NCBI GenBank assembly: GCA_965213675.1 | Contig: OZ243916.1 | Location: 3,360,001-3,424,000 of the forward strand | Reading direction: 5' to 3' | Length of the DNA: 64,000 nucleotides | Source of the DNA: an uncultured Candidatus Binatia bacterium | Lineage (GTDB): Bacteria > Desulfobacterota > Binatia > UBA9968 > JAJDTQ01 | Part shown: positions 6,415 through 26,695 of the stretch, piece after piece | How the letters are laid out: each line of letters begins with the position of its first letter | Position numbering within the stretch: position 1 is the stretch's first letter | Position numbers and translations under genes: made by a program | Notes under the pieces: model-generated | Told to the model about the DNA's origin: nothing | Databases searched by the model: none | The model's input: the letters and a program-made list of their open reading frames with translations, nothing else

Positions 6415-6548
6415 CCTGAAGGCGTCAGGTGTCCAGCGCCTTCGCCACATGGATATTTTGAAGTTATCTCTATTGCATGGTTATTATCCATGTATGGACG
6501 CTTTCAATGAAACATCACCTTGGTTTGTTTCGAAACTGTGCTATTTTA

Positions 6549-8680: not shown

Positions 8681-9142
8681 TCACAAGACGCCTCCCTGGC
8701 GAGGCTGCTGGTCGGCTGACCGCATGAGGTTGCGGTGTTCGCGCATCCGGTAGCTGTTCCCGCGGATGTTGACGATGTGGCAGTGGTGCAGGAGCCGGTC
8801 GATGAGGGCAGCAGCCATGACCTCGTCGCCGAGGACGCTGCCCCAGTCCTCGAAGCCCTTGTTGGAGGTGAGCACGGTGGAGGCGCGTTCGTGCCTGGCG
8901 TTGATGAGCTGGAAGAAGAGCACGGCGCCGTCCTGAGTGACGGGCAGGTAGCCGATCTCGTCCACCACGAGCAAGGCGGGATAGGTAAGGACCCGCAGCC
9001 GGCGGGAGAGCTCGCCTGCGGCCTTGGCCTCCAGCAGCGACTCGATCAGTCCGGCCAAGGTTCCGTAGTAGACGCGGTGGCCGGATTCGGCGGCGGCGAC
9101 GGCCAGGCTGATAGCAAGATGAGTCTTGCCGACCCCGGGCGG
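8681..9142 (-). pseudogene. istB: istB 3' part
   Basis: PGVGKTHLA, LLVVDEIGY, TSNK, DRLLHH and GNSYR. Confidence 0.9.
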
Positions 9143-9150
9143 ACCCGCCA

Positions 9151-9627
9151 CATATTGCCCGTTATCACGGTCGCGAGATAACCATTCGTTACCCGTTCCA
9201 TCCTCGTGCTGGCGAGACGATGGCGGTCATCCGGCGCCACCGGTTCCGTGGCATGAGCGTCTTCGTTGTCAGGCAGCCCGACGGAACGCTGGCGCAGATC
9301 CCTGCATGGATGTGCGCCACGGAGGCGGGCGCGATGTCGGTGACGAAGTCCCCACGCCTTCCAGTGGCCGAACTGCACACGCTTCGCATTACCGTCGACG
9401 CCCTTCTATCATCGCTCTCCAAACCCCCCAACGAAGGAGAGCCACATGGGCAAGAACGGGATTCGTCGTCAGAGAGATCTGCTGAAGCTGTTGGAGCCAG
9501 GGCCGGTGCTCGCACCGGAGTTGCTCAAGTCGGTCGTGCCGCTGCTGGCGACACTGCTGCTGCAAGCGGTGGAAGCCGAGGCGCAAAGCGCCGCGGAAAC
9601 GGTGACGGTGGAGGGAGCGAGCAATGA
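9151..9627 (+). CDS. Small accessory protein of the recombinase element (Y4bD/DUF5372-like), 5' end split by integration
   Basis: The IRYPFHP..G and PDGT..IPAWM motifs begin upstream of the first ATG (9220). Confidence 0.55.
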   Translation, partial: HIARYHGREITIRYPFHPRAGETMAVIRRHRFRGMSVFVVRQPDGTLAQIPAWMCATEAGAMSVTKSPRLPVAELHTLRITVDALLSSLSKPPNEGEPHGQERDSSSERSAEAVGARAGARTGVAQVGRAAAGDTAAASGGSRGAKRRGNGDGGGSEQ

Positions 9628-9631
9628 GTAA
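9446..9631 (+). CDS. Small hypothetical protein of the recombinase element
   Basis: AGGAG RBS before the ATG. The stop overlaps the recombinase start. Confidence 0.45.
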   Translation: MGKNGIRRQRDLLKLLEPGPVLAPELLKSVVPLLATLLLQAVEAEAQSAAETVTVEGASNE

Positions 9632-11577
9632 GGTCTCGGCCGATCATCTCTCCCGTAAGGCGTTTGTCTACATCCGTCAATCCACCCCGGACCAGTTGAG
9701 ACACAATCACGAGAGCCGGCGGCGGCAGTACGGCCTGACGGTGAGAGCCCGGAAGTTGGGATGGGGCGAGACGGTGGTGATCGACGAGGATCTCGGCCGT
9801 TCGGGCAGTGGCACGGCACGGCCGGGGTTCGAGCGGTTGTTGTTGGCGATCTGCGAGGGACGGGTGGGCATTGTCCTGGCGTTGGAGGCTTCACGCCTCG
9901 CCCGCAACGGCCGCGACTGGCACACGCTGCTTGAGTTCTGCGGGCTGGTGGGGTGTCTGCTCGCCGACGAGGAGGGCGTCTACGACCCGCGCCTGCCCAA
10001 CGACCGTCTCCTTCTGGGCATGAAAGGGACCCTGTCGGAGCTTGAGCTGTCCACGATGCGTCAGCGCTCGCTGGAGGCGCTGCGCCAGAAGGCGCGCCGT
10101 GGCGAGCTCCTGCTGAACGTCGCCGTGGGCTACGTGAAGGTTCCGCGAGACCGGATCGTCAAGGATCCCGACCGGCGCGTGCAGGAGGCGATCAGCTTGG
10201 TGTTCCGCAAGTTCTCAGAGTTCCAGAGCGTTCGGCAAGTCCATCTTTGGCTCCGTCAGGAGGAAGTGCTGCTGCCGGCAGTGGACGGCGAGCCGGGTGA
10301 CGGTGGAAGGCGGCCGCAAGCGGGTCAGCCGGGGCCATCGCCGGGACCGCGAGGCCTGGGACGTGTTGATCGTGGATCACCATGAGGGTTATGTTTCCTG
10401 GGAGGAGTTCGAGAGGAACCAGCGTTTGATCGCCGACAACGCCAACTGCAAGGGGTTGATGACACGGGGCGCGGTTCGCCGTGGCGATGCCCTGCTGGCG
10501 GGGCTCTTGCGCTGCGGTCACTGCGGCCGGCGGTTGCATGTTTCCTATAGCGGCACCGACGGCTACTGCGTTCGCTACAGTTGCCGCGGGGCGCACCTCA
10601 ACCATGGGACTCGGCGCTGCATCTCGTTCGGCGGCGTTCGTGTGGACTCGGCGGTTGCCGAGGAGGTGCTACGGCTGTTGAGCCCGTTGGGCATCGAGGC
10701 CTCGGTGGAAGCCGTGACGATGAGGGAGGACAACGTCGCCGAGACGCGGCGCCAGGTGGAGCTGGGTTTGACCCAGGCGCGCTACGAGGCGGATCTTGCG
10801 CGTCGCCAGTACGATGCGGTGGACTCGCAGAACCGGCTGGTGGCGGCGGAGCTCGAGCGCAGATGGAACGAGCGGCTGGCGGAGGTGGCGAGGCAGGAAG
10901 AGCGGTTGGCGGCCACGGCGGCTGTCCAGCCGGATGCCTTGTCCGGCGAGGACAGAGAGCGGCTGCTGGCGCTCGGGGGCGACCTTGAGACGGTCTGGGA
11001 GCACCCCGGCGCCACGGCGGAAACCCGCAAGCGGATACTGCGCGCGGTGCTGGAAGAGATCGTCGCCACCTCGGCCGAGGACCGTATCGAACTCCTGCTG
11101 CACTGGCGCGGTGGCGATCACACCCGCCTGAGCGTTGCCCGCAACCGCACCGGGCAACATCGGTGGCGGACCAGCGCGGAGGTCGGCGAGCTGATCCGCG
11201 GCCTTGCCCGACAGCAGCCGGACAGCGCCATAGCGGCCACGCTGAATCGGCTGGGCAAGCGGACCGGCCGCGGCAACGCATGGACGGAGATGCGGGTCCG
11301 CAGCTTCCGGTGCCATCACACGGTTCCCGTGTACCGGCCGGGCGAGATGGGGGAACGCGGAGAACTCACTCTCAAGGAGACTGCGGGCAGGCTCAGGGTC
11401 AGCACGATGACGGTCCTGCGTCTCATCAGCGCCGGAACGATTACGGCGCGGCAACTCTGCAAGGGGGCGCCCTGGGCGGTGCCGGAGGCGCAGATCACGG
11501 GACTCGAAGGCGCGGAGGTGGTTCCCCACCATCCGCTAACAGCCAACACGGATCAGAAAGAACTGGATTTCCAATAA
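9624..11577 (+). pseudogene. Large serine recombinase (resolvase, recombinase, Zn ribbon, HTH) with internal deletion/frameshift near 10285
   Basis: VYIRQST, DLGRSGSG..RPGF, SRLARN and LLRCGHCG. Split into ORFs 9624-10385 and 10297-11577. Confidence 0.85.
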
Positions 11578-11614
11578 CGTAGAGAGGTGTGCATTATGAA
11601 GCCCGACTCGGCGG

Positions 11615-11950
11615 GCCGATAAAAATGACGTTTTCGCGGCGATCCAGGAAGCCGAGTTCGTGGAGGCTCTCGATCTGCTCGCGCTTGATGCTGGGCTGGA
11701 AGGCGAAGTCGAACTGGGCCAGGGTCTTCACGGCCGGCAGCCGCGACGAGCGCATGGCGGTCTGGAGGCGGCGGTTGTTGCGCAACCCGATCTGGGCGTC
11801 CAACAACTGCTCGATAGCCTCGCTGGCGGTGGCCGCCCCGCTGTCGGCCTGGGCCAGGACGTCGTCGACGGCCTCGAGCGCGCCCGGCATCTTCAGGTCC
11901 GCCAGCATCGCCCGCAGCCGGTCGCGCCGGTTGCCTGCCTCGGCCCTCAT
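11615..11950 (-). pseudogene. istB: istB 5' part
   Basis: KTLAQFDFAFQPSI..ENVIFIGPP. Confidence 0.88.
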
Positions 11951-12969
11951 GACACGGCCTCCGCATAGGCGCTGAGCGAGCGCCGCTCGACGTCTACGGT
12001 GACGGGCAGGGGGCGCCGGGCTTGCTGTGGAAGCGTGTGCATACCAAGGCGCCGATACGGGCAACTCGCCAACGGCAGCAGCGCCTGTAGCTCGTCACGC
12101 TCGAAGCGGTCCACCGGGCGCTCCCTGGTGGTGCCGTGCCAGCGCCGGTTCGCGGTTCCCTCAAGCCACAAGCGCACCTGCTCGTTCAGGTCCTCGTCGT
12201 TCAGGAACTCCCGGCCGTAGAAGAAGTTGTTGCGGATGTAGCGGATCGGGCGCTCCACCTTGCCCTTGGTTTGGGCTCGGTACGGCCGGCATGCCCGAGG
12301 CCGGAACCCCCAGTGCGCGGCGAACCGTAAGAAGTCCGCGTTCAACACCAACTCGCCCCCGCCCGCGCGGCCGTCCGACACCACCACCGAACGCATCTGG
12401 TCGAACTACAGCTCCTGCGGCACCCCGCCGAAGCACTCGAAGGCGCTCTCCAGCCCTTCGATCAGCACTGCCATCGTCTGCCGCCTGTAAAACCGCAGCC
12501 ACAACAGCCGGGAGTGGCTCAGAACCGTCACCAGAGCGTGCCGCCGCCCCCAGGGAAGCGTGAACGTCGCAAAGTCCACCTGCCCCTGCCGTCCCGCCGG
12601 CGTCTCGAACCGCACCACCGCCTCCGCCGTCTCCCGCGGCCGTACCGACCGAACGTACTCCCTCACACGGACGTACCCGCCCGTGTACCCCGCCCCTCGT
12701 ACCTCGTCGTATAGCCGCTTCGCCGACAACCGCGGATACTCCTCCAGTCGCGCCTCGATGATCCCCTTGTACGGATCCAGCTTGTGACACACCGCCGGTC
12801 TCGCCCTGTACCGCGTCCCGCCTCCCGACAGATCCCGGTCTAACTGCCCCGTCTCCACCCACTCGTGGATCGTCCGGCGACTCACCCCGAACCGCCGCGA
12901 CAGCTCCGTCTTCGTTACACCCCGTTCCAGATAGTGCCTAAGCAGCATCCTCGTCTCCCATCCGTGCAT
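11947..12969 (-). pseudogene. istA: istA transposase with in-frame TAG at 12406-12408
   Basis: RFETPAGRQGQVDF, FGGVP..L*FDQM and CRPYRAQTKGKVER. Both ORF pieces are in the same frame. Confidence 0.9.
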
Positions 12970-13089
12970 CTGTGCTCCGCTCCGTTCCTGTTGCTCTTGC
13001 CAACAGCGTGGACCCGAGCACTCACACCGGCAATCAATCTGTGCAGTTTTCGATTGCCATAAATGGGAAATTTACAGTTGCCACCAACA

Positions 13090-13285
13090 ATCCACACCAA
13101 ACCGTCGCGACAACTCCGCCCTGGTCACGCCTCGTTCCAGATAGTGCCTTATCAGCATCCTTGTCTCCCATCCGTGCATCAGTTCGCCGCTCCATTCCTG
13201 TTGGCTTTTCCCAACAGACTGGCCAACGTACACCTCCTCGCAATCTTCTATGTGCGACATCTTCGATTGACACAAATGGGACATT
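13090..13285 (-). mobile_element. IS21 element A left-end remnant with istA N-terminal stub
   Basis: aatgtcccatttgtgtcaatcgaa (inverse of 5861-5884). MHGWETRMLIRHYLERGV (13179 downward) is cut off by element B. Confidence 0.75.
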
Positions 13286-13528
13286 GCATCGCGTACTGCC
13301 GCGTAAGCTTCGTCCTAGCGACTTGACCGGTCTATGAGGAAATCCACCTTATTGGCGGACAGGACGCACCGTGTGGCGTTGACCACGGTCTTTCTCGCTT
13401 ACACCCGACCCGCCGGCATTGACCAAGGTGTCCGTCGGCAGTAAGAGTTTGAACGCGGATTACGCCCCAAGCCATTGATTTTGTTAGAAACGTCTGTACA
13501 CCTTTCAGGCTCTGCATCTCCTTATTCT

Positions 13529-13611
13529 GTTATAACTACAATAATTGTATGAATAGTGTTGGCAACTATGTGATTGTCGTGCTAGACTCTCAGCACTGAC
13601 CATGAGGAGGA
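13529..13611 (+). promoter_or_regulatory. Putative promoter, operator and RBS of the ubiquitin-like operon
   Basis: Palindromes GTTATAAC and TACAAT-A-ATTGTA, TTGGCA-18-TAGACT with TGn, and GAGGAGG RBS. Confidence 0.45.
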
Positions 13612-13617
13612 CCATAA

Positions 13618-13812
13618 ATGGCGAGAAAACCCACGATCCGCGAGCTTGAACAGCTCTTGGAGTCCGAAGAGGATACCCCCATCGAAATACTGCCGAACGG
13701 CGAGATTCGCGCCCGGGGGGGGAGCGATGCCGCAGAGCGGGGCTACAAGAAGCCTCTCACAATGCGAGAGGACCTCGGCGGCGAGTATGGGCGAGGGGGG
13801 ATCCGGGCATGA
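13618..13812 (+). CDS. 64-aa protein, candidate modifier/substrate of the E1-E2-JAB module
   Basis: Strong RBS, ATGA overlap with the next gene, C-terminus LGGEYGRGGIRA. Confidence 0.7.
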   Translation: MARKPTIRELEQLLESEEDTPIEILPNGEIRARGGSDAAERGYKKPLTMREDLGGEYGRGGIRA

Positions 13813-14183
13813 ATCTGACAAGGGTTCGCCATGAGATCGCGGCCGCTCAGCAGTACTTCGACTACGTGGAGGGCCATCCAACCCCTGAAGGAGGCGTGAT
13901 TGCGTTGATCGCCTTGCAGACAAGCAGGGATGTGTACACGATGGCCGTCTCCTTCCCGGAGTCTTACCCGAACGGGATGCCGGAGGTGCATGTCAGGAGG
14001 CCCGCGTTGCGACCATCTCCCCACAGGTACACGGACAACAAAATCTGTTTCTTGCATCCGCGCATGTGGAACCCGGGGCGCCACAACCTCGCGTTCGTGA
14101 TTCAGCGAGCGGCGAAGTGGTTCGCGAAGTACGAGGTATACCTCGAGACAGGAAAATGGGCCGGCGTCGAAATTAAGCACTAG
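13809..14183 (+). CDS. Prokaryotic E2 (UBC-like) conjugating enzyme
   Basis: FPESYPNGMPEV, PHRYTDNKIC (catalytic Cys position), WNP and terminal GKWAG. Confidence 0.75.
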   Translation: MNLTRVRHEIAAAQQYFDYVEGHPTPEGGVIALIALQTSRDVYTMAVSFPESYPNGMPEVHVRRPALRPSPHRYTDNKICFLHPRMWNPGRHNLAFVIQRAAKWFAKYEVYLETGKWAGVEIKH

Positions 14184-14187
14184 TACG

Positions 14188-14718
14188 ATGGCGATCGAAT
14201 TCAAGCCATTGCCGATGATGGCATTGCGAAGCAGGCCCGGCGAGGTCCTGGATGAGGTGTCCCGAGATGGCGCAGCGTTCCTCATCGAGAGAAACGGGCA
14301 ACAGAAGGCTTGTCTTGTACCGATATCGTACTTCCTTCCAGACATTCAGACGTCCCGCGTCGCGGAGGAGTTGGACAAGATCATCGACTCGAACGAGCAC
14401 TACCGGATCACAATCAGCGGCCAGCGGGAGATTCAACTCATATTCCGGGAGTTCAGTGGCGAAACGCAGGTCGACGTGACGGTAACGCTACCCCACGGCT
14501 ATCCGAACAAAGCGCCGGTTGTATACGCGGCGCCGATCGATGACGGGTGTCCACACCGTTGGCCGGATGGGACGTTGTGCATATACGGTGCCGTAGCTGT
14601 GTGGAACCCAGGAAAACACGACGTGATGCACGCGGTGGCGCTGTTCAGACGGTGGATCCAGCACTACTCGGTTTGGCGGCAGGCCGGACAATGGCCGACG
14701 GAGGGAACTGAACCATGA
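14188..14718 (+). CDS. Phd/YefM antitoxin-like domain fused to an E2-like domain
   Basis: N-terminal ALRSRPGEVLDEV..AFLIERNG..ACLVP. C-terminal LPHGYPNKAPVV, PHRWPDGTLC, WNP and GQWP. Confidence 0.72.
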   Translation: MAIEFKPLPMMALRSRPGEVLDEVSRDGAAFLIERNGQQKACLVPISYFLPDIQTSRVAEELDKIIDSNEHYRITISGQREIQLIFREFSGETQVDVTVTLPHGYPNKAPVVYAAPIDDGCPHRWPDGTLCIYGAVAVWNPGKHDVMHAVALFRRWIQHYSVWRQAGQWPTEGTEP

Positions 14719-15566
14719 AGGGTCGGTTGTTCGCGAGGATCGAACAGCTATTCGATGTGAAGGCGTTCGAAGACCTTTGGGTGTTGATTGCAGGGTGCGG
14801 ATCGGGCGGTGGCCAAGTGGCGCTGCAGTTGGCCATGTCTGGAGTGAAGAAGTTCATCCTGGCGGACACGGATAAGCTGGAAGTGGAAAATGTTATCCGG
14901 CACGTCTGCGGGATCCGGTACCTGGGTTGGAAGAAGACGGCGGCCCTTGCTGACGTCTTGAGTGACCGCAACCCGCAGATCGAAGTCAAAGAATTTTACG
15001 GCGACGTAACAGCGTGGCCGAGACTGGCAGAGGAGGTCGAGCGCGCGAGCGTTGTAGTCTTGGGGACGGACAACGAACCGAGCCGGTATCGGCTGAACGA
15101 GGTCTGTGTGGAAACGGCGACGCCGTTCACGGTTGGTCGAGTCTTTACGCGAGGAATTGGGGGTGAGGTGTACTCCTACAGGCCCGGGATCGGCGGCTGC
15201 CTGGCCTGCCTTGAGGGGCTTCTTGAGCGGAGCCAATACCGCGACGGTGTCAGGGAAATCGACCTCGTTTCGGAGGAGGAGCGGCAGAAGGTGTACGACC
15301 TTGAAATCGAGGAGATCAAGGACTCGCCCGGCCTATCGGTGGATATCGGGTTCATCGCAGCCTTCCACACGCGGTTCACTTTGGACGCACTGGGCCACGA
15401 AGCGGAGTCCCCACCTAAGTTTATGACGCCGATCGACCATAACTACCTAGTGTGGGGAAATCGAGCCGTGTACCCGTTCTCGAAGAACTTCGAACTGCAG
15501 CGCATGAAGCTGCCACCGCAGGACGGATGTCTGGTTTGTGGAGGACAAGATGAAGGCCAAGAGTAA
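14715..15566 (+). CDS. ThiF/E1-like adenylating enzyme
   Basis: GCGSGG, DTDKLEVENVIRH, K, TDN and two CxxC motifs (CLAC, CLVC). Confidence 0.9.
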   Translation: MKGRLFARIEQLFDVKAFEDLWVLIAGCGSGGGQVALQLAMSGVKKFILADTDKLEVENVIRHVCGIRYLGWKKTAALADVLSDRNPQIEVKEFYGDVTAWPRLAEEVERASVVVLGTDNEPSRYRLNEVCVETATPFTVGRVFTRGIGGEVYSYRPGIGGCLACLEGLLERSQYRDGVREIDLVSEEERQKVYDLEIEEIKDSPGLSVDIGFIAAFHTRFTLDALGHEAESPPKFMTPIDHNYLVWGNRAVYPFSKNFELQRMKLPPQDGCLVCGGQDEGQE

Positions 15567-16467
15567 GGTGCGGGAGGTACGCTTGGAGATCCCGGGAGTC
15601 GTCCTGGAGAGCGTGTTCGAGGAGTGCGACCGCTATGACCGCGAAGAGACGGGGGGGCGCGTGGTAGGCCATTTCACCATAGATTTCGGGACGCTGGTGG
15701 TGCACGTCGGGGGAGTGATTGAGCCGGGTCCAAATGCCCACCGCACAAGCACCAGCTTCTTTCAAGACGGCGATCACCAAGCTGAGGTGTTCCGCCAACT
15801 CGAGGCGGAAGACCCATCGATCGAGCATCTTGGCAACTGGCATACACATCATGTGAACGGATTTCCGAGGCTGAGTGCAGGCGACGTGGCGACCTATCGC
15901 CGGATCGTGAACCACCAGTTACACAACCTGGATTTCTTCTACGCATTGCTTGTGACGAATAGAAACGAAGGCCGGACCGGACTGGACCGATATGCAGTAC
16001 GGCACCACGTGTTGTTTCGTGGTGAAGAGGCCGTCCACGAAATCCGACCGGCCGATGTACACGTAACGGTCGGGCCGAGGATCTGGCCAAAGGAGGCAGA
16101 CTCTTCCACACAAGCTCCTGGCGCAGGTGGCGCAGAGGACGACGGGGCGCGCGGGATTGTTGAAGTACGGGGGCGGGACCAAAGTGTCCTAGGCGTGCTG
16201 TGCCCCTCGATGGAACCCCGGGTGTCAAACCAAACGGGAACGTTCTTTTGGAAGGGTTCGCTGCCGTTAATCGACGGGTCCACGGTAGAGATTCGGGTCG
16301 CCGAAGTCGAAGACGACGGCGGACTGCTCTACTACCCCATCGTCTCAGGCGTGTCGGCGGATGTGGCTGAGTTGTGCGAAACACCATTCCCGAGCGCGTC
16401 CCACGCGGTCCGTGCGTTGGAGTCGCAGATAAATCGGGAGATTTACGAGTCCGCGATAAGGCGGTGA
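15550..16467 (+). CDS. JAB/MPN+ metallo-isopeptidase with C-terminal extension
   Basis: ETGG and GNWHTHH....LSAGD. GGAGGA RBS before ATG 15550. Confidence 0.85.
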   Translation: MKAKSKVREVRLEIPGVVLESVFEECDRYDREETGGRVVGHFTIDFGTLVVHVGGVIEPGPNAHRTSTSFFQDGDHQAEVFRQLEAEDPSIEHLGNWHTHHVNGFPRLSAGDVATYRRIVNHQLHNLDFFYALLVTNRNEGRTGLDRYAVRHHVLFRGEEAVHEIRPADVHVTVGPRIWPKEADSSTQAPGAGGAEDDGARGIVEVRGRDQSVLGVLCPSMEPRVSNQTGTFFWKGSLPLIDGSTVEIRVAEVEDDGGLLYYPIVSGVSADVAELCETPFPSASHAVRALESQINREIYESAIRR

Positions 16468-16477
16468 GGGCCAAAAT

Positions 16478-17302
16478 ATGGAAGTGTTGACGCTTTACGT
16501 CGGACAAGGGAATTTCGCCGTCATCCGCCACGGTAGGCAGGCTATCGCAGTGGACACTCGGTGGCTTGCTGACCAATCAGACGATATCGAGTCGACGGTG
16601 GGCCGCTTCCTGCAACGGCGGGAACTTGTGGGCGTCGTGTTGACCGGGTTTGATGACGATCACGCCGATCCCGTCGGGCTGGACTGGTTTCTTGAGAACT
16701 ATACGCCCGGCTGGGTGATGTACCCAAAATACTACAAGGATACCGACAACGCGGAAGCGGTCTTCAACGTGGTTCGGAAGCACGAGCGGCGTCGCCAGGG
16801 CACAGCAAACCCGCTTGAGCGCGTTTCTGTACGGCTTGATCGGCTGGAGTCCCGGTACCTCGATGATCTGTCGGAGGAATTCCAGCTAGAGTTGTTCTCA
16901 CCCCACGTCGAGGACATGGACAGCTCTAACAACTGCAGCATCGTGCTGAAGGTGGAAGGAATCGGTCCGGGCGGATTTACATACTTGGTTACGGGCGACA
17001 CGGAGGTCCCCCGGTGGGACCGGATCGTCCAACTTTTCGACGACGCGTTGGACTCGGACGTTCTGGCGGCGCCACACCACGGATCGAAAAACGCCGCTCA
17101 CCCTGGGATGGTCTTGGCGGTCACACCGAACACGGTGCTTATCAGCGCGGGAGTCGACAACCAGTACGGGCACCCGGACAGAAAAGCGGTGCAGTTGTAT
17201 CTGCGGGTGGCGAAGCGCGTATTTCGGACAAACGTGCGGAACGGAATTTCGCTTCTCACAAGGCGAAACGGCGGGGAGTTCCAGACTACCCGTGTGCGTT
17301 AA
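16478..17302 (+). CDS. ComEC/Rec2-type metallo-beta-lactamase-fold hydrolase
   Basis: YVGQG, TGFDDDH (variant of HxHxDH), NNCSIV, TGD, APHHGS and ISAG..NQYGHP. Confidence 0.88.
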   Translation: MEVLTLYVGQGNFAVIRHGRQAIAVDTRWLADQSDDIESTVGRFLQRRELVGVVLTGFDDDHADPVGLDWFLENYTPGWVMYPKYYKDTDNAEAVFNVVRKHERRRQGTANPLERVSVRLDRLESRYLDDLSEEFQLELFSPHVEDMDSSNNCSIVLKVEGIGPGGFTYLVTGDTEVPRWDRIVQLFDDALDSDVLAAPHHGSKNAAHPGMVLAVTPNTVLISAGVDNQYGHPDRKAVQLYLRVAKRVFRTNVRNGISLLTRRNGGEFQTTRVR

Positions 17303-17462
17303 CGGTCGATGGAATTTTCTTCTGCCCATTGGCGCCACCAACATCCTGGCGCTCTTAGGCGAGCCCTAGACTGAATGATTGGGAACACTTCCAATGCGTT
17401 GGGGCTCTTCAACACAACGGTGTGGAACGGGAAAAGCCCAAACAACCCGAGAGGAACGAATT

Positions 17463-18587
17463 ATGACCTTTGAACTACCAACACGCGGGCTCGTTTTTTG
17501 GCCAGTCGGAAACGGTGACAGCACCACCATCGTCATCGACCCCAAGACCTGTCTCCAGATAGACCTCAACCACCTCGAGAAATCCGAGGACGACGACGCC
17601 TCTTGGCCCGTGGTTGATGAACTTGTCAAGCACCTGCCCAAAGTCAACCGCCGCCCCTATCTCGCTGCGTTCGCGCTCACACATCCTGATCAGGACCATT
17701 GCCGGGGCTTCGCCAAACTCCTCAACGAAGTCGATATCGGTGAATTGTGGTTTACACCTAGAGTGTTCCGTGAGTACAAGAAGGACCTCTGCGACGACGC
17801 GGTGGCATTCAAGAAGGAGACGGAACGCCGCGTTCAGAAGGCTATCGACGCCAAGCACGCCCCAGGCTCGGGCGACCGCATTCGGGTCTTCGGCTACTCC
17901 GACCTGCTGGAAGAGGACGACTTCAAGGATTTCCCCAAGGATCGCCTAACTGTCCCCGGTAATGAACTTACCGTCGTCGACGAGAAGGACTTGGCTGGCC
18001 ACTTCCGCGCCTTCGTCCACGCTCCGTTCAAAGATGATGACGCGGGCGAGCGGAACGATACGAGCCTCGCCATGCAAGTCACGCTCCACGCTGGCCCGCA
18101 AAGACTTCGCGCGCTCCTTCTTGGAGACCTTCCCTACCCGATCATCAAGCGCATCTTCGCGATTAGTGACGCCGAGGACCTCGCCTGGAATGTGCTCCTC
18201 GCACCCCACCACTGCTCGAAGGCCGTAATGTACTGGAAGAATGACGGCGACGACGACGAGAAGCTCAAAAAGCACATCGTCGACGAAATGGACGAGGCGG
18301 CACAGGACCCGAATCGTGTCGTATCCAGCTCCAATCCCGTGCCGTCATCCAACAAGGCTGGCGACAACCCGCCTCACGCCAAGGCAAAGACGCAGTACGA
18401 GACCATCACCGACTCCTTCCTGTGTACGATGGACCAGGATGAACCTATCGTGGCTGAACTTGACCACCAAAGGATCGTTCTCGCCGGGGTTGCGACGGCC
18501 TCCAAGTCCGCATCGCAGGCCGCAGACGAAGCGCGCGGCTCAAACAGACCCCCCGACGGCGCCCACACCTACGGCTGTGGCAAATGA
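17463..18587 (+). CDS. ComEC-like MBL hydrolase with a conjugation-type C-terminal tail
   Basis: FWPVGNGDS, THPDQDH, NDTS, GD and APHHCS. Ends HTYGCGK. Confidence 0.85.
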   Translation: MTFELPTRGLVFWPVGNGDSTTIVIDPKTCLQIDLNHLEKSEDDDASWPVVDELVKHLPKVNRRPYLAAFALTHPDQDHCRGFAKLLNEVDIGELWFTPRVFREYKKDLCDDAVAFKKETERRVQKAIDAKHAPGSGDRIRVFGYSDLLEEDDFKDFPKDRLTVPGNELTVVDEKDLAGHFRAFVHAPFKDDDAGERNDTSLAMQVTLHAGPQRLRALLLGDLPYPIIKRIFAISDAEDLAWNVLLAPHHCSKAVMYWKNDGDDDEKLKKHIVDEMDEAAQDPNRVVSSSNPVPSSNKAGDNPPHAKAKTQYETITDSFLCTMDQDEPIVAELDHQRIVLAGVATASKSASQAADEARGSNRPPDGAHTYGCGK

Positions 18588-21500
18588 GTAATGGCTACAC
18601 GCTCGCTGGCGAACAGCTAAGGGAGATCGCCGAAACATCGGAAGGCACCGTTCAAATTCATGACGAAACCACACGGCCAAGCGGCTACCGCCAGTTCGAC
18701 GTAAGCATGCGCTTCGACGGCCTTCAACGTGTCGAAGACGGACTTGCAGTGCGAGCCCGTGAGCCATTCCGCGTCATTGTTTCACCTGCCTTCCCTTTCA
18801 AACATCCCGTTGTCGAGACGCCTCACTCTCGTTTCGCCGGCTTCCGGCACGTACAGTGGCGGCGGAGCCCCTGCCTGTACCAAAGCTCCTCCGATTGGGG
18901 CCCAAGCGACGGCATGTACGGCTTCATTACGCGCCTCGACGCCTGGATACGCGACGCCGCACTTAACAATCTCGACCCGGACGACGCACCCCTCCACCCA
19001 CCAGTCGAGTACCCCACGGTCCATCGCCTAATTGTGCCCAAGGCAAATACGCCGGCGGTCTCTGGCACGCCATGGTTTGGATTCGCCAAACTCCGCGAAA
19101 GGAACCATCGCACCGAGATCATTGGATGGGAAGAGAACAGCCAAGAAGGCTCTGACTTCGCGCCTGCAATCCTCCTCCACGAGAATCTTCCCTTCGAATA
19201 CCCCGAAACTGTCCACGCTCTACTGAAAGAACTCGAATTCCACGGAATCGACTATGTGCCCTTTGTCTTCCGACTTGCCGCCCAGGCACGACGCAGCGAC
19301 GCAGGCACACCGCTAACCGTAGTTCTTGGAACTCCGATGCGCCGCGTCGACCCGGGGGGGCCTACCCTTCAGCACTTGGCCGTGTGGGAGATTTCTGCCG
19401 ACGACGCGGACAAGCTGCGCGAGCTGAACATCTCCGCGCAGTTCCGCGGGTCACCGCGATGGGAAGCCGCGACGACGGCGGTCGCCGAATGGGCTGTGTT
19501 TGCCAAGGTGGGGTGGTGCATCGTCCGTGAGATGCGGCCCGAAGTGACCAGCAGACGCGACCATTCATCAGCCATGGCTTGGTTTCGTGGAAAGCGTGTG
19601 GCCATCTGGGGTTGCGGCGCCGTAGGCACTCACGTGGCGGAATCGATTGTACGCGCCGGGGCCAGAACCGTTGAACTCGTCGACAACAAGACTGTTGCAC
19701 CCGGTCTCCTAGTACGGCAAGTCTTCGAAGACGCCGACATCGGAGAGTTTAAGGCCCAAGCGCTCGCCGAACGACTTAAACGGATCGAACCTGACCTCGA
19801 GACACATGTTTCAACCGACGACCTTGTCCTACGTATCATAGGTCCACACCCGGTCCCGGAGGTGGACTTGATAGTCGACTGCACAGCTTCATCGGCCGTT
19901 CAGACAGCCCTCGAGCGAGCACTCCAGGCCGTCGACTCACGCCCCGCGATAGCTGCTGTATCCATCGATAGCCAAGCCGCCACGGCCATTGCCACTCTCT
20001 CTTCGCGCAACCACAGCGGTGCGACCCTCGACCTTGTTCGCCGGCTCAAGCTGGAAGCATGTAGCACACCGGCGCTTTCGAAGGTCCTTGAGGCATTCTG
20101 GCCAAGAACAACGCCAAGTGAGCGCTTTCAGCCAGAGCCCGGCTGTTCGGAACCGACGTTCATCGGTTCCGACGCAGATCTTGCCGCGCTATCTGCGCGC
20201 ATGCTGAATTCCATCACTCACGCTATTGGAAACCCCCGCGATGGCCACACGGGGGCAGGTTGGTTGTTGGAAGAATCGGGAGCGTTACGTGGTTTCGCGT
20301 GGCCTCCGGACCACACCCTGAGGGATGAGGGGCGGGGCTACTCCGTCAGGGTATCTTCACTGGCCGCGCGGGAAATGCGAGGATGGGCTAGGCGTTCCGC
20401 ACGTACGGTCGGCTCAACAGTCGAGACGGGCGGCCTCGTCTTCGGCGAGCTCAACGAAGCCGCGACCGTTCTCTGGGTAACAGATGTCGAGGGACCGCCA
20501 CCCGACAGCGAGGCAGCTGGGGATCATTTCACCTGCGGCACGGACGGCATGGAAACCGTTGCCCAAGAAAGGCAACGCAGGTTCCGTGGATCTGTAGACT
20601 GCCTCGGTAGTTGGCACACCCACCCAACGTCAGCACCCCATCCAAGTCGCGTCGACATCGGCGCTGTCATACAGCTTCTCGCCAACCCGGGTTCGACCCG
20701 TCGAACTTGCCTTGTTTTGATCCTCTCTGGTGACCCGGATGACCCAAGACTGGGCGCGTATGCCTTCAGAACAAAACTAGTCGGCGAAACGCTCATCCGC
20801 ATCCAACCAAGCGCGGCTGCAACCGCGTCCCTTGGGCCAAAGCCAAAGAAACCGCGCAACATCGGAACTGCCCTCTCAGGCGGAGGCTCGCGCGCCATCG
20901 CGTTCCACCTCGGGTGCCTGCGCGCCCTGCACGACCTCGATCTACTCAGCCGTGTTCAGGTAATTTCGAGCGTCTCCGGCGGGTCTATAATCGCGGCCAT
21001 GTACGCCTATTCTTGCGACTCGTTTCGGGAGTTTGACGCGCGTGTTGTAGAGCTTCTTCATCGAGGATTCAAACGGGATATCTTCCGCGAGGTGTTCAAG
21101 CTGGTTTCAATTGGGAAGATCCTGCGACGCCATGTCAGGGCGACCGCGTCTTTCCTATCTCGCACGTTCCTTCGGCTACTTCACGCCGTCGTGAGACCGG
21201 TTGTGGCTCATCGCCAAGGCCCGCCGCCGACCCGCACGTTCAGCCGCACGGAGGCGTTTCGCGACATCATTGCCACCTCCCAATTCGGTGACACCATCGT
21301 ACGCGACGTCGCCCGACATTCACTCCATACGGTCATCAATGCCACAGAACTACGAACCGGCTCCGCATTTCGGTTCGGAAGCAGCCAAAGCGGCTGCTGG
21401 CGATTCGGCACGATTCCCCCCGAAGACGCTCTGGTTGCAGACGCCGTGGCTGCCTCGGCGGCGTACCCGGCACTCTTCCCGGCACTCGAGCGCGAGTACC

Positions 21501-21994
21501 GCTTCACGAAGAACGGGTCCAGCACCGATGCCGCGCGCGTTCTGCTTACCGACGGTGGGGTCTTTGAGAACCTCGGCGTGAATCCGATGGAGCCGGGCCG
21601 GACACCTTCGGTCACCACTAACGTCTTCGACCCCGACTACATTATTTGCTGCGACGCGGGTGCTGGTCTATTCGATGATGACAGCTACCCGACACGTTTG
21701 CACACCCGGATATACAGATCGTTCCTCACGGTCTTTCGCAAGGTCCAAGACGCCACCCGAAAACGCCTACACCACCTTGCCGACGCCGGGGAAATCTCCG
21801 GCTTCGCGTTATGCTATCTCGGGCAGCAGGACAATGCCTTGCCCTGGGTACCAGCAGGTCTTCCTAGAAGGGATGAGGTTCGAGATTACCCTACCGACTT
21901 CGCCGCGATGTCAACGGAAGACGTCGATCGGTTAGCTCTCCGTGGAGAACTCCTGATGAGGCTTCTCGTTGCGTACTACCTCCCAGACCTCTAA
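18584..21994 (+). CDS. E2-E1(ThiF)-JAB-patatin phospholipase fusion
   Basis: E2: FPFKHP..HVQW..PCLY. E1: GCGAVG, LVRQ, DCTA, EPGCSEPTF. JAB: ETGG, GSWHTHP..PS..D. Patatin: LSGGGSRA, SVSGG, DGG. Confidence 0.85.
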   Translation: MSNGYTLAGEQLREIAETSEGTVQIHDETTRPSGYRQFDVSMRFDGLQRVEDGLAVRAREPFRVIVSPAFPFKHPVVETPHSRFAGFRHVQWRRSPCLYQSSSDWGPSDGMYGFITRLDAWIRDAALNNLDPDDAPLHPPVEYPTVHRLIVPKANTPAVSGTPWFGFAKLRERNHRTEIIGWEENSQEGSDFAPAILLHENLPFEYPETVHALLKELEFHGIDYVPFVFRLAAQARRSDAGTPLTVVLGTPMRRVDPGGPTLQHLAVWEISADDADKLRELNISAQFRGSPRWEAATTAVAEWAVFAKVGWCIVREMRPEVTSRRDHSSAMAWFRGKRVAIWGCGAVGTHVAESIVRAGARTVELVDNKTVAPGLLVRQVFEDADIGEFKAQALAERLKRIEPDLETHVSTDDLVLRIIGPHPVPEVDLIVDCTASSAVQTALERALQAVDSRPAIAAVSIDSQAATAIATLSSRNHSGATLDLVRRLKLEACSTPALSKVLEAFWPRTTPSERFQPEPGCSEPTFIGSDADLAALSARMLNSITHAIGNPRDGHTGAGWLLEESGALRGFAWPPDHTLRDEGRGYSVRVSSLAAREMRGWARRSARTVGSTVETGGLVFGELNEAATVLWVTDVEGPPPDSEAAGDHFTCGTDGMETVAQERQRRFRGSVDCLGSWHTHPTSAPHPSRVDIGAVIQLLANPGSTRRTCLVLILSGDPDDPRLGAYAFRTKLVGETLIRIQPSAAATASLGPKPKKPRNIGTALSGGGSRAIAFHLGCLRALHDLDLLSRVQVISSVSGGSIIAAMYAYSCDSFREFDARVVELLHRGFKRDIFREVFKLVSIGKILRRHVRATASFLSRTFLRLLHAVVRPVVAHRQGPPPTRTFSRTEAFRDIIATSQFGDTIVRDVARHSLHTVINATELRTGSAFRFGSSQSGCWRFGTIPPEDALVADAVAASAAYPALFPALEREYRFTKNGSSTDAARVLLTDGGVFENLGVNPMEPGRTPSVTTNVFDPDYIICCDAGAGLFDDDSYPTRLHTRIYRSFLTVFRKVQDATRKRLHHLADAGEISGFALCYLGQQDNALPWVPAGLPRRDEVRDYPTDFAAMSTEDVDRLALRGELLMRLLVAYYLPDL

Positions 21995-22256
21995 CGATCG
22001 ATCCCCCCTTTCCACTGCGCACCGTGCCCTCAGGAGCGGAGACTTCGAGGGTCATCGCGATTGGAACCTACGCCGGTGATGCCCAACAGTACCAGCGACC
22101 CTCAGCACCGAAGGATAAGGGGCCCCCGGACAATAGTCCTCGACCCGTCCCGGACCATTCGGCGATCAGCGCGCTGATCGCCCTCGTCGTGCGGGGGCGG
22201 TCCAGTGGCCGTCGTGATTTACGGCTCGTATCAGCTGTGAAACTGGATGTGGTGAT

Positions 22257-23312
22257 TTAGGTGCTTCTCTTGAGGGCGATGTGGAGCAGTTTCGTTTGGT
22301 AGGTAGCGATGCTGTGATCGCTGAGGAGGCTACCCCATTTGTTCGTCCCATTGAAGATCGCCCGAACCCGTCTGCCCCAACCGACCGTGTAGAGCAGGGT
22401 AGCCCTGGAGAAGTCGCCGTCCTTGCAGTTGGTGATAAATCGCATGTTGCCGCCGTGTTCGTAGCCGGAGAAGTACCGTTCGAGCATGTTGCCGATCCAT
22501 ACGAGGAAGGTAAGGAAAGGGGCAAGGCGCCCTAACGCGCGAAGCCCCTTTGTCAGGAGGGCTATCGCCGTGCCGGTTAAAGGGACCATCGGGACGACGT
22601 CGGCCGAGTTCACGATCCTGTAGACCGGACTCTTGATTTGCCCAAGCCACGCCTCGCTCCCGCTCCGGGGCGACCCGTAGGTGTAGCAGGCGGCAATCTG
22701 TCGCTCCGCGCTCAGGCGTCTGGTGGCAATGGTCGCTACTGCCCCGCCGAGGCTGTGGCCCGTAATGAAAAGGGGCTTGTTCGCAACCCCTTCCATATCC
22801 AGCGCCGCCTCAATCGCATCCTCGACATCATTGTACTGGCCCTGGAAACCGGCATGGACGTGTCCGCCAGTTCGGCTCCGCGCCTTATAGGATTTCAGAT
22901 CAGCCCTGATATCACGTATGGATGTTGATTCCGTTCCCCGGAATGCTAGGACGGCGTGATCCGTACTGTAGGCTACAAAGGCTTGGGTGGCGTTTACGCT
23001 GATAGTTTTCGCCAAGGTCCAGCCGATCTTCTTCAACCGACTACTCAGTCTGGCCTCTTCAGCTTCGTAATCTTGTCCGCAGGCCTTCGTGATGGCTCCG
23101 AGTATCTTCGCGTCAGAGCTCTTCGGCAGTCCTCTCAGGGCACGTTGGACGAGCTTAAGAACGGCCTCTCCCTCGAAGGCGGATTTGTCGAACTTCAGAT
23201 AGGCCAATTCCGACATGTAGGCCATGAGCCAAGCAGCTCGATCGCTGTACGCCTTGCGGTAGTCGGGCATCTTCTTGCCGAGAACCTTATCGTGCAAATC
23301 CTGTTCGACCAT
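22257..23312 (-). CDS. Lipase class 3 family protein
   Basis: AFRGT, VHAGF, TGHSLGGA, YGSPR, DVVP and a C-terminal DH. Confidence 0.9.
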   Translation of the reverse strand: MVEQDLHDKVLGKKMPDYRKAYSDRAAWLMAYMSELAYLKFDKSAFEGEAVLKLVQRALRGLPKSSDAKILGAITKACGQDYEAEEARLSSRLKKIGWTLAKTISVNATQAFVAYSTDHAVLAFRGTESTSIRDIRADLKSYKARSRTGGHVHAGFQGQYNDVEDAIEAALDMEGVANKPLFITGHSLGGAVATIATRRLSAERQIAACYTYGSPRSGSEAWLGQIKSPVYRIVNSADVVPMVPLTGTAIALLTKGLRALGRLAPFLTFLVWIGNMLERYFSGYEHGGNMRFITNCKDGDFSRATLLYTVGWGRRVRAIFNGTNKWGSLLSDHSIATYQTKLLHIALKRST

Positions 23313-23503
23313 GGAGTCAATCCCTTCCGGTTCTACTGCGTTACCGACAAGTCTCGTTGCTTCTCCTCGGCATCATCAGGTAATATCCGCCTAGTCAAAC
23401 CGTCATCACCCAAATCCCTCATCCCAACTACGCGCTCTGCTGACTACCGCGAGATCATACACACATCAGCTAGATGCGATGTCCCCTTGGAGATAGAGAC
23501 GGT

Positions 23504-24025: not shown

Positions 24026-24043
24026 CTGCGGACCGCTCCAAGG

Positions 24044-24400: not shown

Positions 24401-24403
24401 TAG

Positions 24404-26108: not shown

Positions 26109-26119
26109 GAGGTGCTCTC

Positions 26120-26687: not shown

Positions 26688-26695
26688 GCATCCTC

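Follow-up and report, generated by a model that had tools for sequence, protein, structure and literature searches.

Among the described bacterial systems with ubiquitin-type enzymes, 6A-MBL (primary paper Van Den Berg et al. 2024, as cited in PMC13276650) is the closest named relative of the locus described here. It consists of two genes, the E2, E1 and JAB activities forming one polypeptide. In the part of the earlier survey by Iyer, Burroughs & Aravind (2006, PMC1779556) that deals with operon type 6a, the E2-E1-JAB module has an MBL gene as its core partner. In type II CBASS, it is the C-terminus of the CD-NTase that Cap2 conjugates. Bil (BilABCD) and Bub (6E/DUF6527) systems resemble our locus in having separate E1, E2 and peptidase genes and, as first gene, one for a small protein that is expected to be activated at its C-terminus. 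Bub pathways act via oxyester intermediates, according to the relevant part of a preprint (bioRxiv 10.1101/2024.11.21.623953).

Here we analysed a six-gene cassette within a 64-kb window (the whole stretch of DNA that was analysed). The cassette is a real, widely conserved set of ubiquitin-type enzymes and looks like an undescribed anti-phage system. This defence reading derives from its context, namely a variable seventh gene, flanking defence genes and a low-GC island containing AbiE and IS fragments. Literature searches returned no description of the cassette, and none of its proteins reaches the cut-off of any named family among the curated models, the nearest being type II CBASS Cap2/Cap3 and 6A-MBL.

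Operon layout, conservation and the seventh gene

The cassette and its immediate surroundings comprise the following features:

13559..13588, + strand: sigma-70-like promoter match (TTGGCA-18-TAGACT) 5' of p64, a consensus match
13618..13812, + strand: p64, 64-aa ORF, ATG preceded by a Shine-Dalgarno sequence
13809..14183, + strand: E2a, 124-aa ORF, stand-alone UBC-fold E2
14188..14718, + strand: Phd-E2b, 176-aa ORF, Phd/YefM-like N-domain and E2/UEV-fold domain
14715..15566, + strand: E1, 283-aa ORF, ThiF/MoeB-type adenylating enzyme
15550..16467, + strand: JAB, JAB/JAMM metallopeptidase, 305 aa from ATG 15550
16478..17302, + strand: MBLa, 274-aa ORF, ComEC-type MBL-fold hydrolase, cassette core gene
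17463..18587, + strand: MBLb, 6A-MBL MBL enzyme (NF058524), occupying the cassette's seventh-gene slot
18584..21994, + strand: E2-E1-JAB-patatin fusion, 1136 aa, 6A-MBL cap2_3 (NF058523) with a C-terminal patatin phospholipase

The first-pass annotation of this DNA had described six tightly coupled same-strand genes at 13618-17302, and all ORFs, ATGA overlaps and short gaps were indeed found. Hereby, ATGA overlaps link p64 to E2a and Phd-E2b to E1, the E1 and JAB genes overlap by 17 nt, and gaps of 4 nt and 10 nt separate E2a from Phd-E2b and JAB from MBLa, respectively. The JAB ORF as listed (15538-16467) encodes 309 aa; since homologues start at ATG 15550, we take the protein to have 305 aa. 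A GAGGAGG Shine-Dalgarno sequence lies 5' of the p64 ATG. The position of the promoter match at 13559..13588 is consistent with p64 being the first gene, the weak consensus itself occurring at 3 sites compared to 3.0 expected in shuffles. The tRNA-adjacent island with AbiE noted in the first pass is likewise present, with tRNA-Met at 5562-5638, AbiEi/AbiEii at 6477-8298, IS and recombinase fragments, and a GC content of 0.55-0.60 as opposed to 0.66-0.69 in the flanks.

Of the 57 evaluable loci in other genomes, 50 have all six genes in colinear order, an arrangement far beyond chance. The cassette loci are distributed over some twelve bacterial phyla plus a single archaeal MAG. The upstream genes are not conserved among them, the downstream slot varies, and no conserved exporter or immunity gene was found beside the cassette among the loci compared. 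Among the large ORFs in the flanks are DISARM, BREX, RM and Mokosh proteins, a tally uncontrolled for enrichment.

Directly downstream of the cassette, at 17463-21994, lies a true 6A-MBL system with a fused patatin. MBLb reaches 280.5 bits against NF058524 (cut-off 220). Its ORF as listed opens at TTG 17379, the family match begins at ORF residue 40, and an ATG with GAGAGGA upstream is found at 17463. The 1136-aa fusion, joined to MBLb by an ATGA overlap, scores 350.2 bits against NF058523 (cut-off 320) and contains the Pfam domains Prok-E2_A, ThiF, Prok-JAB and Patatin (residues 763-1000). A true 6A-MBL copy directly follows the cassette also in 9 of 58 related loci. The 56 ORFs called in the seventh-gene slot include 17 patatins, 12 MBL proteins and two sets of eight 4-TM proteins; ten of the 12 MBL proteins match NF058524, and in nine of these ten NF058523 comes next. 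While the six core genes of the earlier description hold together, the comparison of loci indicates that a variable, effector-like seventh gene also belongs to the unit. Such a swappable gene (patatin, 4-TM protein or 6A-MBL pair) follows a pattern typical of defence effectors.

Enzymes of the cassette and their relation to described systems

E2a matches the PADLOC E2 model PDLC00862 at 5.7e-13 and Pfam UQ_con at 0.0073 (16.4 bits, below the cut-off of 27). In profile searches of the PDB its best matches are eukaryotic E2s (UBE2W, 1.1e-4). Both His72 and Cys80 (HxxxxxxxC) are kept in 58 of 58 copies, and the last residue is His in 55 of 61. A predicted UBC fold with a His...Cys active-site pair places E2a in the E2/UBC superfamily.

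Phd-E2b combines an N-terminal segment (about residues 1-47) that may be related to Phd/YefM antitoxins with a second E2 domain. Residues 9-47 match Pfam PhdYeFM_antitox (PF02604) at 2.8e-05 (24.2 bits, under the gathering score of 29.8), and the N-terminus scores 15.7 bits against TIGR01552 (cut-off 20.8). The AF2 model (pLDDT 89.8) shows a beta-alpha-alpha-beta-beta N-domain (secondary structure E-H-H-E-E over residues 5-43), followed by an E2/UEV fold. In Foldseek the top matches are Vps23 UEV, UFC1, Cdc34 and CdnG-E2 8hsb_B, the RelB2 antitoxin 3g5o_A appearing down at rank 50 (E 1.7e-02). The E2 part matches PADLOC E2 at 4.2e-08 and aligns with E2a in hhalign at 99.5% probability (E 6.5e-23), and by this measure the domain is a paralogue of E2a. 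The two separate E2s reported in the first pass are both present, the picture being refined in that Phd-E2b keeps its cysteine in only part of the copies: the Cys131 column holds C in 41, S in 15, G in 1 and Q in 1 of 58. In three of 57 evaluable loci (L027, L039, L048) the only Phd-E2b matches are cross-hits of the E2 part to the E2a gene, and in L040 the match is confined to residues 48-173, the N-terminal Phd part being without a match. Because Phd-E2b has no match of its own in the former three loci and a partial one in the latter, the second E2 is not strictly essential.

The E1 matches Pfam ThiF at 8.2e-27 and carries a GCGSGG loop, TD119 and two CxxC pairs (Zn site); the nucleotide loop and the Zn cysteines are invariant among copies. 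In the PDB its profile finds MccB (3.7e-19), MoeB (8.4e-18), ThiF, SAE2, UBA5 and Cap2 (2.6e-09). Among the aligned copies no invariant Cys is present in the segment between C165 and C272, in which Y194 and S204 are invariant. The E1 would thus lack an invariant Cys where the crossover-loop catalytic Cys is expected, which counts against the conjugation reading. The Ser/Tyr oxyester chemistry of Bub may be a precedent bearing on this Cys-less loop and on the Ser variants of Phd-E2b.

JAB scores 25.2 bits against Prok-JAB (cut-off 25) and 5.5e-18 against PADLOC JAB, and its JAMM residues (E33, H98xH100, S109, D112) are invariant. It carries an extra conserved C-terminal domain of ~140 aa, which has no usable Atlas match; the PDB profile matches stop at the JAB core. 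Homologues number 1111 at E<=1e-3, and the best 120 of these show 58-91% identity over 92-99% of the query.

MBLa scores best against TIGR00361 ComEC_Rec2 (7.3e-26, 90.5 bits, below the cut-off of 190). This match covers only profile positions 442-661 of 663, i.e. the MBL domain, so that a protein of 274 aa and soluble size is not a full-length ComEC/Rec2. Conserved motifs are D.DH, SPH, TGDTE, APHHGS and YGHP.

The cassette and 6A-MBL have E2, E1 and JAB activities that belong to a common broad clade; both also feature a core MBL-fold hydrolase, a frequent patatin phospholipase partner and a sporadic, mobile distribution. In contrast to the fused polypeptide of 6A-MBL, the enzymes of the cassette are encoded by separate genes, and only the cassette possesses a duplicated E2 with a Phd-like domain, the extra C-terminal domain of JAB, an MBL of ComEC type, and p64. 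It is not itself a 6A-MBL system: E1 and JAB reach 44.5 and 44.4 bits against cap2_3 (NF058523; cut-off 320), and MBLa 38.7 bits against the MBL enzyme (NF058524; cut-off 220). As to type II CBASS, PADLOC matches E2a, E1 and JAB best to the CBASS E2, E1-E2 and JAB models, the effectors (patatin, TM proteins) are of similar kinds, and a logic of conjugation and de-conjugation is expected for the two systems alike. However, E2 and E1 are separate here rather than fused as in Cap2, JAB scores 25.3 bits against Cap3 (NF050170; cut-off 200), and in place of an enzyme tail the cassette has a small protein of its own whose C-terminus is conserved. No CD-NTase or nucleotidyltransferase family was found in any of the eight ORFs in Pfam, PADLOC and NCBIfam. 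The single PADLOC 'Cyclase' match (model PDLC00816) is confined to positions 457-542 out of 542, a C-terminal stretch of the model that is E2-like. Bil and Bub, whose modifiers contain at least one beta-grasp (ubiquitin-like) domain, are set apart by a p64 model that is free of any such domain (AF2, pLDDT 65); Bub differs additionally in that its E2 lacks the catalytic Cys, whereas Cys80 of E2a is kept in 58/58 copies, and a DUF6527 serine protease did not appear in the Pfam search.

The first-pass annotation had proposed a protein-conjugation system, probably antiphage or stress-response, distinct from Bil/Bub and type II CBASS, to be given up if the operon matched an already named system or if the gene set were not conserved in other genomes. 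The proposal of a distinct system holds up on both counts, the gene set being conserved across phyla and the scores against named systems remaining far below their cut-offs (44 vs 320, 38.7 vs 220 and 25 vs 200 bits).

p64 as candidate modifier

p64 consists of a 57-aa conserved core ending in ...REDLGGEY and a 7-aa tail, GRGGIRA. LGGEY ending at residue 57 is found in 58 of 58 copies, of which 19 stop exactly at Tyr57 and 39 carry variable tails of 1-12 aa. p64 is the most conserved of the cassette genes (58-88% identity; tblastn range 44-95%), and identities of 0.81/0.85/0.45 at the three codon positions indicate selection at the protein level. Library-wide, homologues form 578 clusters at 50% identity. 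Among the best 150 clusters GGEY is present in 139, with a tail of <=15 aa in 119 of these 139, and in 109 of 127 cases the Tyr is followed by A, G or S. This pattern is the one expected where processing takes place close to a functional C-terminus.

The protein matches no family in Pfam, PADLOC, NCBIfam or PHROG. Its AF2 model, which was built from a 46-sequence alignment and is weak (pLDDT 65), shows one helix (7-16) and one hairpin (22-32), the rest including the C-terminus being disordered. This model has no beta-grasp, and no beta-grasp family was matched in Pfam or NCBIfam, in agreement with the earlier statement that the operon encodes neither a ubiquitin-fold protein nor a CD-NTase. 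The further remark there, that neither of these substrates is recognisable, stands, but a candidate substrate can be recognised in p64. Because LGGEY is invariant while the tails vary, p64 is likely a C-terminally processed, E1-activated candidate modifier that lacks the beta-grasp fold. p64 holds the first-gene position, which is also that of Ubl genes in related operons, and is translationally coupled to E2a. To our knowledge, the E1-E2 cascades studied so far all use either a Ubl or else a folded enzyme tail, the last residue being Gly or Ala; an E1 substrate with Tyr at its C-terminus would be unusual, which counts against p64 as the tag.

Pup offers a parallel, being about 60 aa long, largely disordered and not of the beta-grasp fold, and carrying, as p64 does, a Gly-Gly-acidic motif close to or directly at its C-terminus. 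However, the GGEY motif has an aromatic last residue. Pup is ligated by the glutamine-synthetase-like PafA and not by E1/E2, and no PafA/Dop-type gene is among the Pfam and NCBIfam matches of the operon.

Proposed mechanism and alternative readings

Taking the comparisons together, we consider the chances somewhat better than even that the cassette forms the core of a conjugation system of the defence type, conserved, horizontally mobile and with its own small modifier, which is related to the Cap2/Cap3 machinery of type II CBASS and 6A-MBL but has its genes split. The first gene would then yield a pro-modifier, 57 to about 69 aa in length, whose variable tail after ...LGGEY would be removed by the JAB peptidase, which probably also undoes conjugates later. 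The ThiF-type E1 would adenylate the exposed C-terminal carboxylate, and the tag would be transferred to Cys80 of E2a. Phd-E2b could play the part of a UEV-like partner, or else be a second E2 (Cys/Ser), choosing the target or dimerising the complex. As for the target itself, a component of phage head assembly is one candidate, the MBL or effector of the system another. Output would proceed via the core ComEC-like MBL hydrolase and the swappable seventh gene, be it one for a patatin phospholipase, for a 4-TM membrane protein or, in the present window, a whole 6A-MBL pair fused to a patatin.

Alternatively, MBLa could be the conjugated protein, a reading to which we assign a rather low probability. 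Hereby, the E1 would activate its C-terminus, the E2s would attach it to a target and thereby switch it on, and JAB would reverse the reaction, p64 acting as a regulator, adaptor or inhibitor, e.g. as a pseudo-substrate that occupies E1 or JAB until infection. The E1, E2 and JAB are indeed nearest to CBASS and 6A-MBL models, type II CBASS conjugates the C-terminus of its own enzyme, and the MBL gene is a core partner of E2-E1-JAB in the operon type 6a section of Iyer et al. (2006, PMC1779556). MBLa tails also vary and are in many cases rich in Ala, 27 of 61 copies having Ala as their final residue. However, the MBLa C-terminus shows no conserved motif, whereas p64 has the invariant LGGEY followed by a processing-site-like residue. 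Moreover, were p64 only a regulator, one would not expect it to surpass the other proteins in conservation and to retain its conserved motif at the extreme C-terminus across hundreds of clusters.

It is still less probable that host-encoded p64 imitates a phage head-morphogenesis protein, as a mimic or bait through which the machinery senses or intercepts phage assembly, for example by p64 being bound or cleaved by a phage factor, or that the phage homologue is the modified target and cellular p64 primes or calibrates the enzymes. Lone p64 homologues are carried by 17 IMG/VR viral contigs, 14 of which keep LGGEY, and no E1, E2, JAB or MBL lies within about 6 kb of them. In three contigs (L067, L071, L077) the gene sits between the portal and the scaffold/major head genes, and in L067 the p64 domain forms the N-terminus of a 356-aa protein. 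Nevertheless, p64 has no match among 50,697 GenBank phage records and no PHROG family, and the viral homologues might just as well represent anti-defence decoys or the stock from which the tag evolved. A mimic or bait would, furthermore, be compatible with p64 serving as the modifier rather than exclude it.

A non-defence pathway, be it peptide modification or stress response by an MccB-like E1 acting on the C-terminus of a small precursor (RiPP-like) or pupylation-like housekeeping tagging, appears very unlikely: although the best PDB match of the E1 is MccB, an enzyme that adenylates a peptide at a C-terminal residue other than Gly, and p64 recalls Pup in size, disorder and GG-acidic C-terminal motif, MccB scores barely above MoeB and ThiF (72 vs 68 and 66 bits), we know of no RiPP pathway with two E2-fold proteins and a JAB, a conserved exporter or immunity gene is missing, and the patatin and 4-TM partners, the adjoining 6A-MBL, the sporadic cross-phylum spread and the mobile island point to conflict systems.

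Organisation and distribution of the cassette

The cassette is a new variant among the E1/E2/JAB defence-type conjugation systems, for which we infer both a mechanism and a role in defence. The first-pass annotation had proposed a distinct conjugation system of this type with no recognisable substrate; this proposal is supported here and sharpened, with the product of the first gene, p64 (a conserved 57-aa core ending in LGGEY, followed here by a 7-aa tail), as candidate tag. An ORF listing confirmed the six plus-strand ORFs at 13618-17302 as they had been read.

Cassette genes and island features upstream of them (window positions)
5562-5638, tRNA-Met
6477-8298, plus strand, AbiEi antitoxin (AbiEi_3, 1e-37) and AbiEii toxin (2.8e-39), on the island of the cassette and some 5 kb upstream of it
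13618-13812, plus strand, p64, 64 aa
13809-14183, plus strand, E2a, 124 aa
14188-14718, plus strand, Phd-E2b, 176 aa
14715-15566, plus strand, E1, 283 aa
From GTG 15538 as listed, plus strand, JAB; homologue starts fit ATG 15550, which gives 305 aa
16478-17302, plus strand, MBLa, 274 aa

ATGA overlaps join p64 to E2a and E2b to E1, while the remaining junctions consist of a 4-nt gap (E2a/E2b), a 17-nt overlap (E1/JAB) and a 10-nt gap (JAB/MBLa). A Shine-Dalgarno sequence, GAGGAGG, precedes p64. Neither a cyclase nor a beta-grasp family was detected in the cassette with Pfam, PADLOC and NCBIfam, in agreement with the initial reading. The island setting described there likewise holds, with the tRNA-Met, the AbiE pair, fragments of IS3, IS21 and IS5, and a GC content of 0.55-0.60 over about 13000-27000 compared to 0.66-0.69 outside. 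A large serine recombinase is found in two overlapping plus-strand frames (Resolvase N-domain, 9624-10385; Recombinase and Zn-ribbon, 10297-11577) and is probably frameshifted (9624-11577); IS21 IstB/IstA fragments lie on either side of it, at 8681-9151 and at 11594-12969 (minus strand).

Judged from homologue counts, the cassette is widespread, with more than 1000 JAB homologues (1111 at E<=1e-3, the best 120 showing 58-91% identity over 92-99% of the query), 592 p64 clusters at 90% identity and 64 species-level genomes from many phyla. The corresponding 64 loci, obtained by scanning one genome per species for 185,579 species, span Gamma- and Alphaproteobacteria, Binatia, Gemmatimonadota, Acidobacteriota, Nitrospirales, Elusimicrobiota, Omnitrophota, Planctomycetes, Verrucomicrobia, Myxococcota, Eremiobacterota and one Methanosarcinales MAG. 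All but one of these genomes are MAGs, the exception being a Bradyrhizobium isolate, and the window's own genome holds a single p64 copy. The Methanosarcinales MAG (L046, JAIWAR010000002.1) carries a complete six-gene cassette, whose p64 and E1 are 65% and 60% identical to those of the window, pointing to transfer between domains or to an artefact of binning.

The gene set is conserved: all six genes occur in the same order in 50 of 57 loci with contig sequence on either side. Among the seven exceptions, two loci (L020, L041) are devoid of p64 and E2a, and three (L027, L039, L048) of Phd-E2b, so that E2a stands alone between p64 and E1; L048 additionally shows only a partial E1 match. In L040, Phd-E2b matches over residues 48-173 only and the N-terminal Phd part has no match. 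Those four natural "one-E2" or "Phd-less" variants could reveal what Phd-E2b contributes. L062 and the already mentioned L039 are degraded. No conserved upstream regulator was found: the nearest upstream ORFs share no cluster, save in four loci with a divergent patatin gene. Since the upstream genes are not conserved, the cassette starts with p64.

The conjugation enzymes

E2a matches the PADLOC E2 model (5.7e-13) and keeps His72 and Cys80 in 58 of 58 sequences. Its C-terminus (WPGAxIxH) is unusually conserved for an E2, with 55 of 61 homologues ending in His. Phd-E2b combines a PhdYeFM_antitox match (2.8e-05, below the Pfam cut-off) with a following PADLOC E2 match (4.2e-08), and profile comparison shows E2b to be paralogous to E2a (hhalign 99.5%, E 6.5e-23). 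In the predicted structure of Phd-E2b (pLDDT 89.8), a beta-alpha-alpha-beta-beta N-domain is joined to an E2/UEV fold. The best Foldseek matches are the Vps23 UEV, UFC1, Cdc34 and the CBASS CdnG-E2 complex, with a YefM-type antitoxin at rank 50. As no Foldseek match reaches E<=1e-3 and E2/UEV folds begin at 1.6e-3, the fold assignment relies on many concordant weak matches together with the hhalign result. The column of Cys131 holds C in 41, S in 15, G in one and Q in one sequence, and 46 of the 58 sequences retain His123. E2b may act as a second E2 or as a partner of the UEV type. A precedent for Ser-based oxyester chemistry is described for Bub (10.1101/2024.11.21.623953).

E1 matches ThiF (8.2e-27), keeps GCGSGG, DRNP, TD119 and two CxxC pairs, and retrieves MccB, MoeB, ThiF, SAE2, UBA5 and Cap2 in profile matches against the PDB. 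Between the CxxC pairs, where the catalytic Cys of the crossover loop would be expected, no invariant Cys is present, while Tyr194 and Ser204 are invariant. This arrangement is reminiscent of the Tyr-oxyester E1 of Bub. JAB reaches the Pfam cut-off for Prok-JAB, matches the PADLOC JAB model (5.5e-18) and carries a complete JAMM motif (E33, H98, H100, S109, D112). A further conserved domain, about 140 aa long, forms the C-terminus; neither a PDB profile search nor the ESM Atlas provided a relative or a usable match for it, and the profile search with the JAB alignment returned a single weak match, 9ild_A "Peptidase" (7.4e-4). MBLa matches the MBL part of ComEC_Rec2 (7.3e-26, below cut-off) and retains motifs resembling a metal site.

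The seventh gene and the 6A-MBL neighbour

Directly after MBLa follows a variable slot. Of the 61 loci in which MBLa matches over nearly its full length, 56 have a same-strand ORF that starts within 400 bp of its end, and these seventh genes were classified by clustering and by Pfam/NCBIfam. Patatin phospholipases account for 17 of the 56, MBL proteins for 12, two families of 4-TM proteins for eight each, and singletons for 11. The ORF caller returned nothing after MBLa in the other five loci (L027, L037, L038, L039, L064). Because tblastn gives patatin-like matches at this position in L027, L037 and L038, the patatin count is a lower bound. Divergent patatin genes are moreover found by tblastn just upstream of p64 in L014, L019, L044, L056 and L064.

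In the window, the slot is occupied by MBLb (17463-18587), which scores 280.5 bits on NF058524, "6A-MBL system MBL-fold protein" (cut-off 220). It is followed by an 1136-aa protein (18584-21994) that scores 350.2 bits on NF058523, "6A-MBL cap2_3" (cut-off 320), and carries a patatin domain at its C-terminus (residues 763-1000). The stretch 17379-21994 (plus strand) is hence a bona fide 6A-MBL system. As the proteins of the cassette itself score only 38-45 bits on the 6A-MBL models, the cassette is a relative of 6A-MBL and not a member. The order of cassette and 6A-MBL recurs: 10 of the 12 MBL-type seventh genes belong to NF058524, and in nine of the ten cases the next gene is an NF058523 cap2_3 gene. 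The latter encodes either about 740 aa next to a separate patatin-sized ORF (372-467 aa), or about 1140-1180 aa, matching the patatin fusion of the window in length. The patatin is fused or a separate gene in these nine related loci. This repeated adjacency offers a route to the role of the MBL partner in these systems.

CBASS-like defence systems are laid out in this way, with a fixed core and exchangeable partners that attack membranes. Strong PADLOC matches in the cassette flanks (DISARM, BREX, type I/IIG RM, Mokosh and Dpd proteins) back a defence reading in a supportive manner only, the scan having covered the 70 largest of 234 listed ORFs without control loci. A RiPP or housekeeping pathway ranks low as an explanation of the cassette. 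6A-MBL corresponds to operon type 6a of Iyer, Burroughs & Aravind 2006 (PMC1779556); a review describes it as a P. aeruginosa anti-phage component with experimental confirmation (PMC13276650), and a preprint lists it among jumbo-phage defences (10.1101/2025.09.30.679545). Neither a split E2/E2/E1/JAB/MBL cassette nor an LGGEY protein was found described in the literature searched; the primary 6A-MBL paper and all supplementary tables lie outside this scope, and a prior description is possible.

Downstream, a class-3 lipase gene (22257-23312, minus strand) is convergent with the end of the 6A-MBL-patatin gene, and past it an IS5-type DDE transposase (24475-25554, plus strand) and a LexA-like S24 repressor (26660-27298, plus strand) lie at the GC boundary of the island.

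p64 as candidate modifier and its phage relatives

The main advance over the first reading is p64 as a candidate modifier, which we infer from its place as first gene, its coupling to an E2, its invariant C-terminal motif and its short variable tails that start with small residues. With 58-88% identity in the alignment, p64 is the best-conserved gene of the cassette. Its identity to the window copy by codon position (0.81/0.85/0.45 in 33 loci) reflects selection acting on a protein rather than on a DNA or RNA element. Among the invariant residues are ILPNGE (24-29), E51, L53, G54, G55, E56 and Y57, and LGGEY is present in all 58 copies (window and 57 loci). The protein ends at Tyr57 in 19 of the 58, while 39 carry tails of 1-12 residues, beginning with G in 19, A in five and S in four.

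The same pattern emerges on a larger scale. Against 1.84 billion cluster representatives, the p64 profile retrieves 578 clusters at E<=1e-3 (251 at E<=1e-10), and 139 of the best 150 contain GGEY. In these 139, the tail after the Tyr has no residue in 12, 1-5 residues in 73, 6-15 in 34, 16-50 in 14 and over 50 in six. Of the 127 tailed clusters, 109 have A (50), G (45) or S (14) directly behind the Tyr. None of the 592 clusters bears a name other than "hypothetical" or a Pfam domain, 46 p64 sequences matched no PHROGs family, and the ESM Atlas gave no usable match. The AF2 model (46 sequences, pLDDT 65) predicts a helix (7-16), a hairpin (22-24/30-32) and a disordered C-terminal half, a fold that, as modelled, is not a beta-grasp. 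The putative modifier is probably not of the ubiquitin fold, and the cassette appears to use a modifier without ubiquitin shape. A complex prediction for E1 and p64 residues 1-57, run without controls, scored 0.26 (mark 0.32) and is counted neither for nor against an interaction.

In the proposed mechanism, p64 would be made as a pro-form, then trimmed by JAB and subsequently activated by E1. Alternatively, MBLa itself might be the conjugated protein: although its C-terminus is unconserved, 27 of 61 copies end in Ala, which keeps this rival alive. Returning to p64, the full reading is that a genuine E1-E2 cascade conjugates a 57-residue, largely disordered, non-beta-grasp protein via its processed LGGEY C-terminus, that this protein has homologues in phage head modules, and that the cassette is wired in series to 6A-MBL-patatin; taken together, we hold these points tentatively, at somewhat short of even confidence. 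Besides bacteria, at least one archaeal MAG would possess such a cascade. If true, p64 would represent a third kind of protein tag beside ubiquitin-fold modifiers and Pup, and the recurrent 6A-MBL-patatin pairing would place two conjugation modules in series on one phospholipase effector.

Bacterial ubiquitin-like conjugation is a young field: the work that explained type II CBASS, Bil and Bub dates from no earlier than about 2023, and 6A-MBL is a reported defence system. Conjugation of p64 would free E1/E2 chemistry from the beta-grasp requirement and provide a minimal model of tail recognition by E1, and the separate small genes for the components should be convenient for biochemistry. The phage homologues would then indicate a testable host-phage interaction around capsid assembly. 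They could be the source of the tag, a structure that the tag mimics to poison capsid assembly, or anti-defence decoys that block the enzymes of the host.

A pattern scan of IMG/VR yielded 17 viral contigs with p64 homologues (L065-L081), in which LGGEY is kept in 14 of 17 and always tailed. No E2, E1, JAB or MBL was found within the flanks of about 6 kb on these contigs, and tblastn of p64 against 50,697 GenBank phage records gave no match. Three examples illustrate the setting.

Viral p64 genes (contig positions)
L067: 5995-7062
L071: 6001-6171
L077: 3042-3227

In all three, the p64 gene lies between an upstream ORF of 716-738 aa and downstream scaffold and major-head genes. The upstream ORF belongs to the portal family phrog_156 in L067 and L071, and the 736-aa ORF of L077 has no PHROG match. 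Terminase, portal and head genes are also found nearby on other viral contigs (scan of 68 of the 152 listed ORFs). The p64 domain of L067 forms the N-terminus of a 356-aa protein that belongs to no PHROG family.
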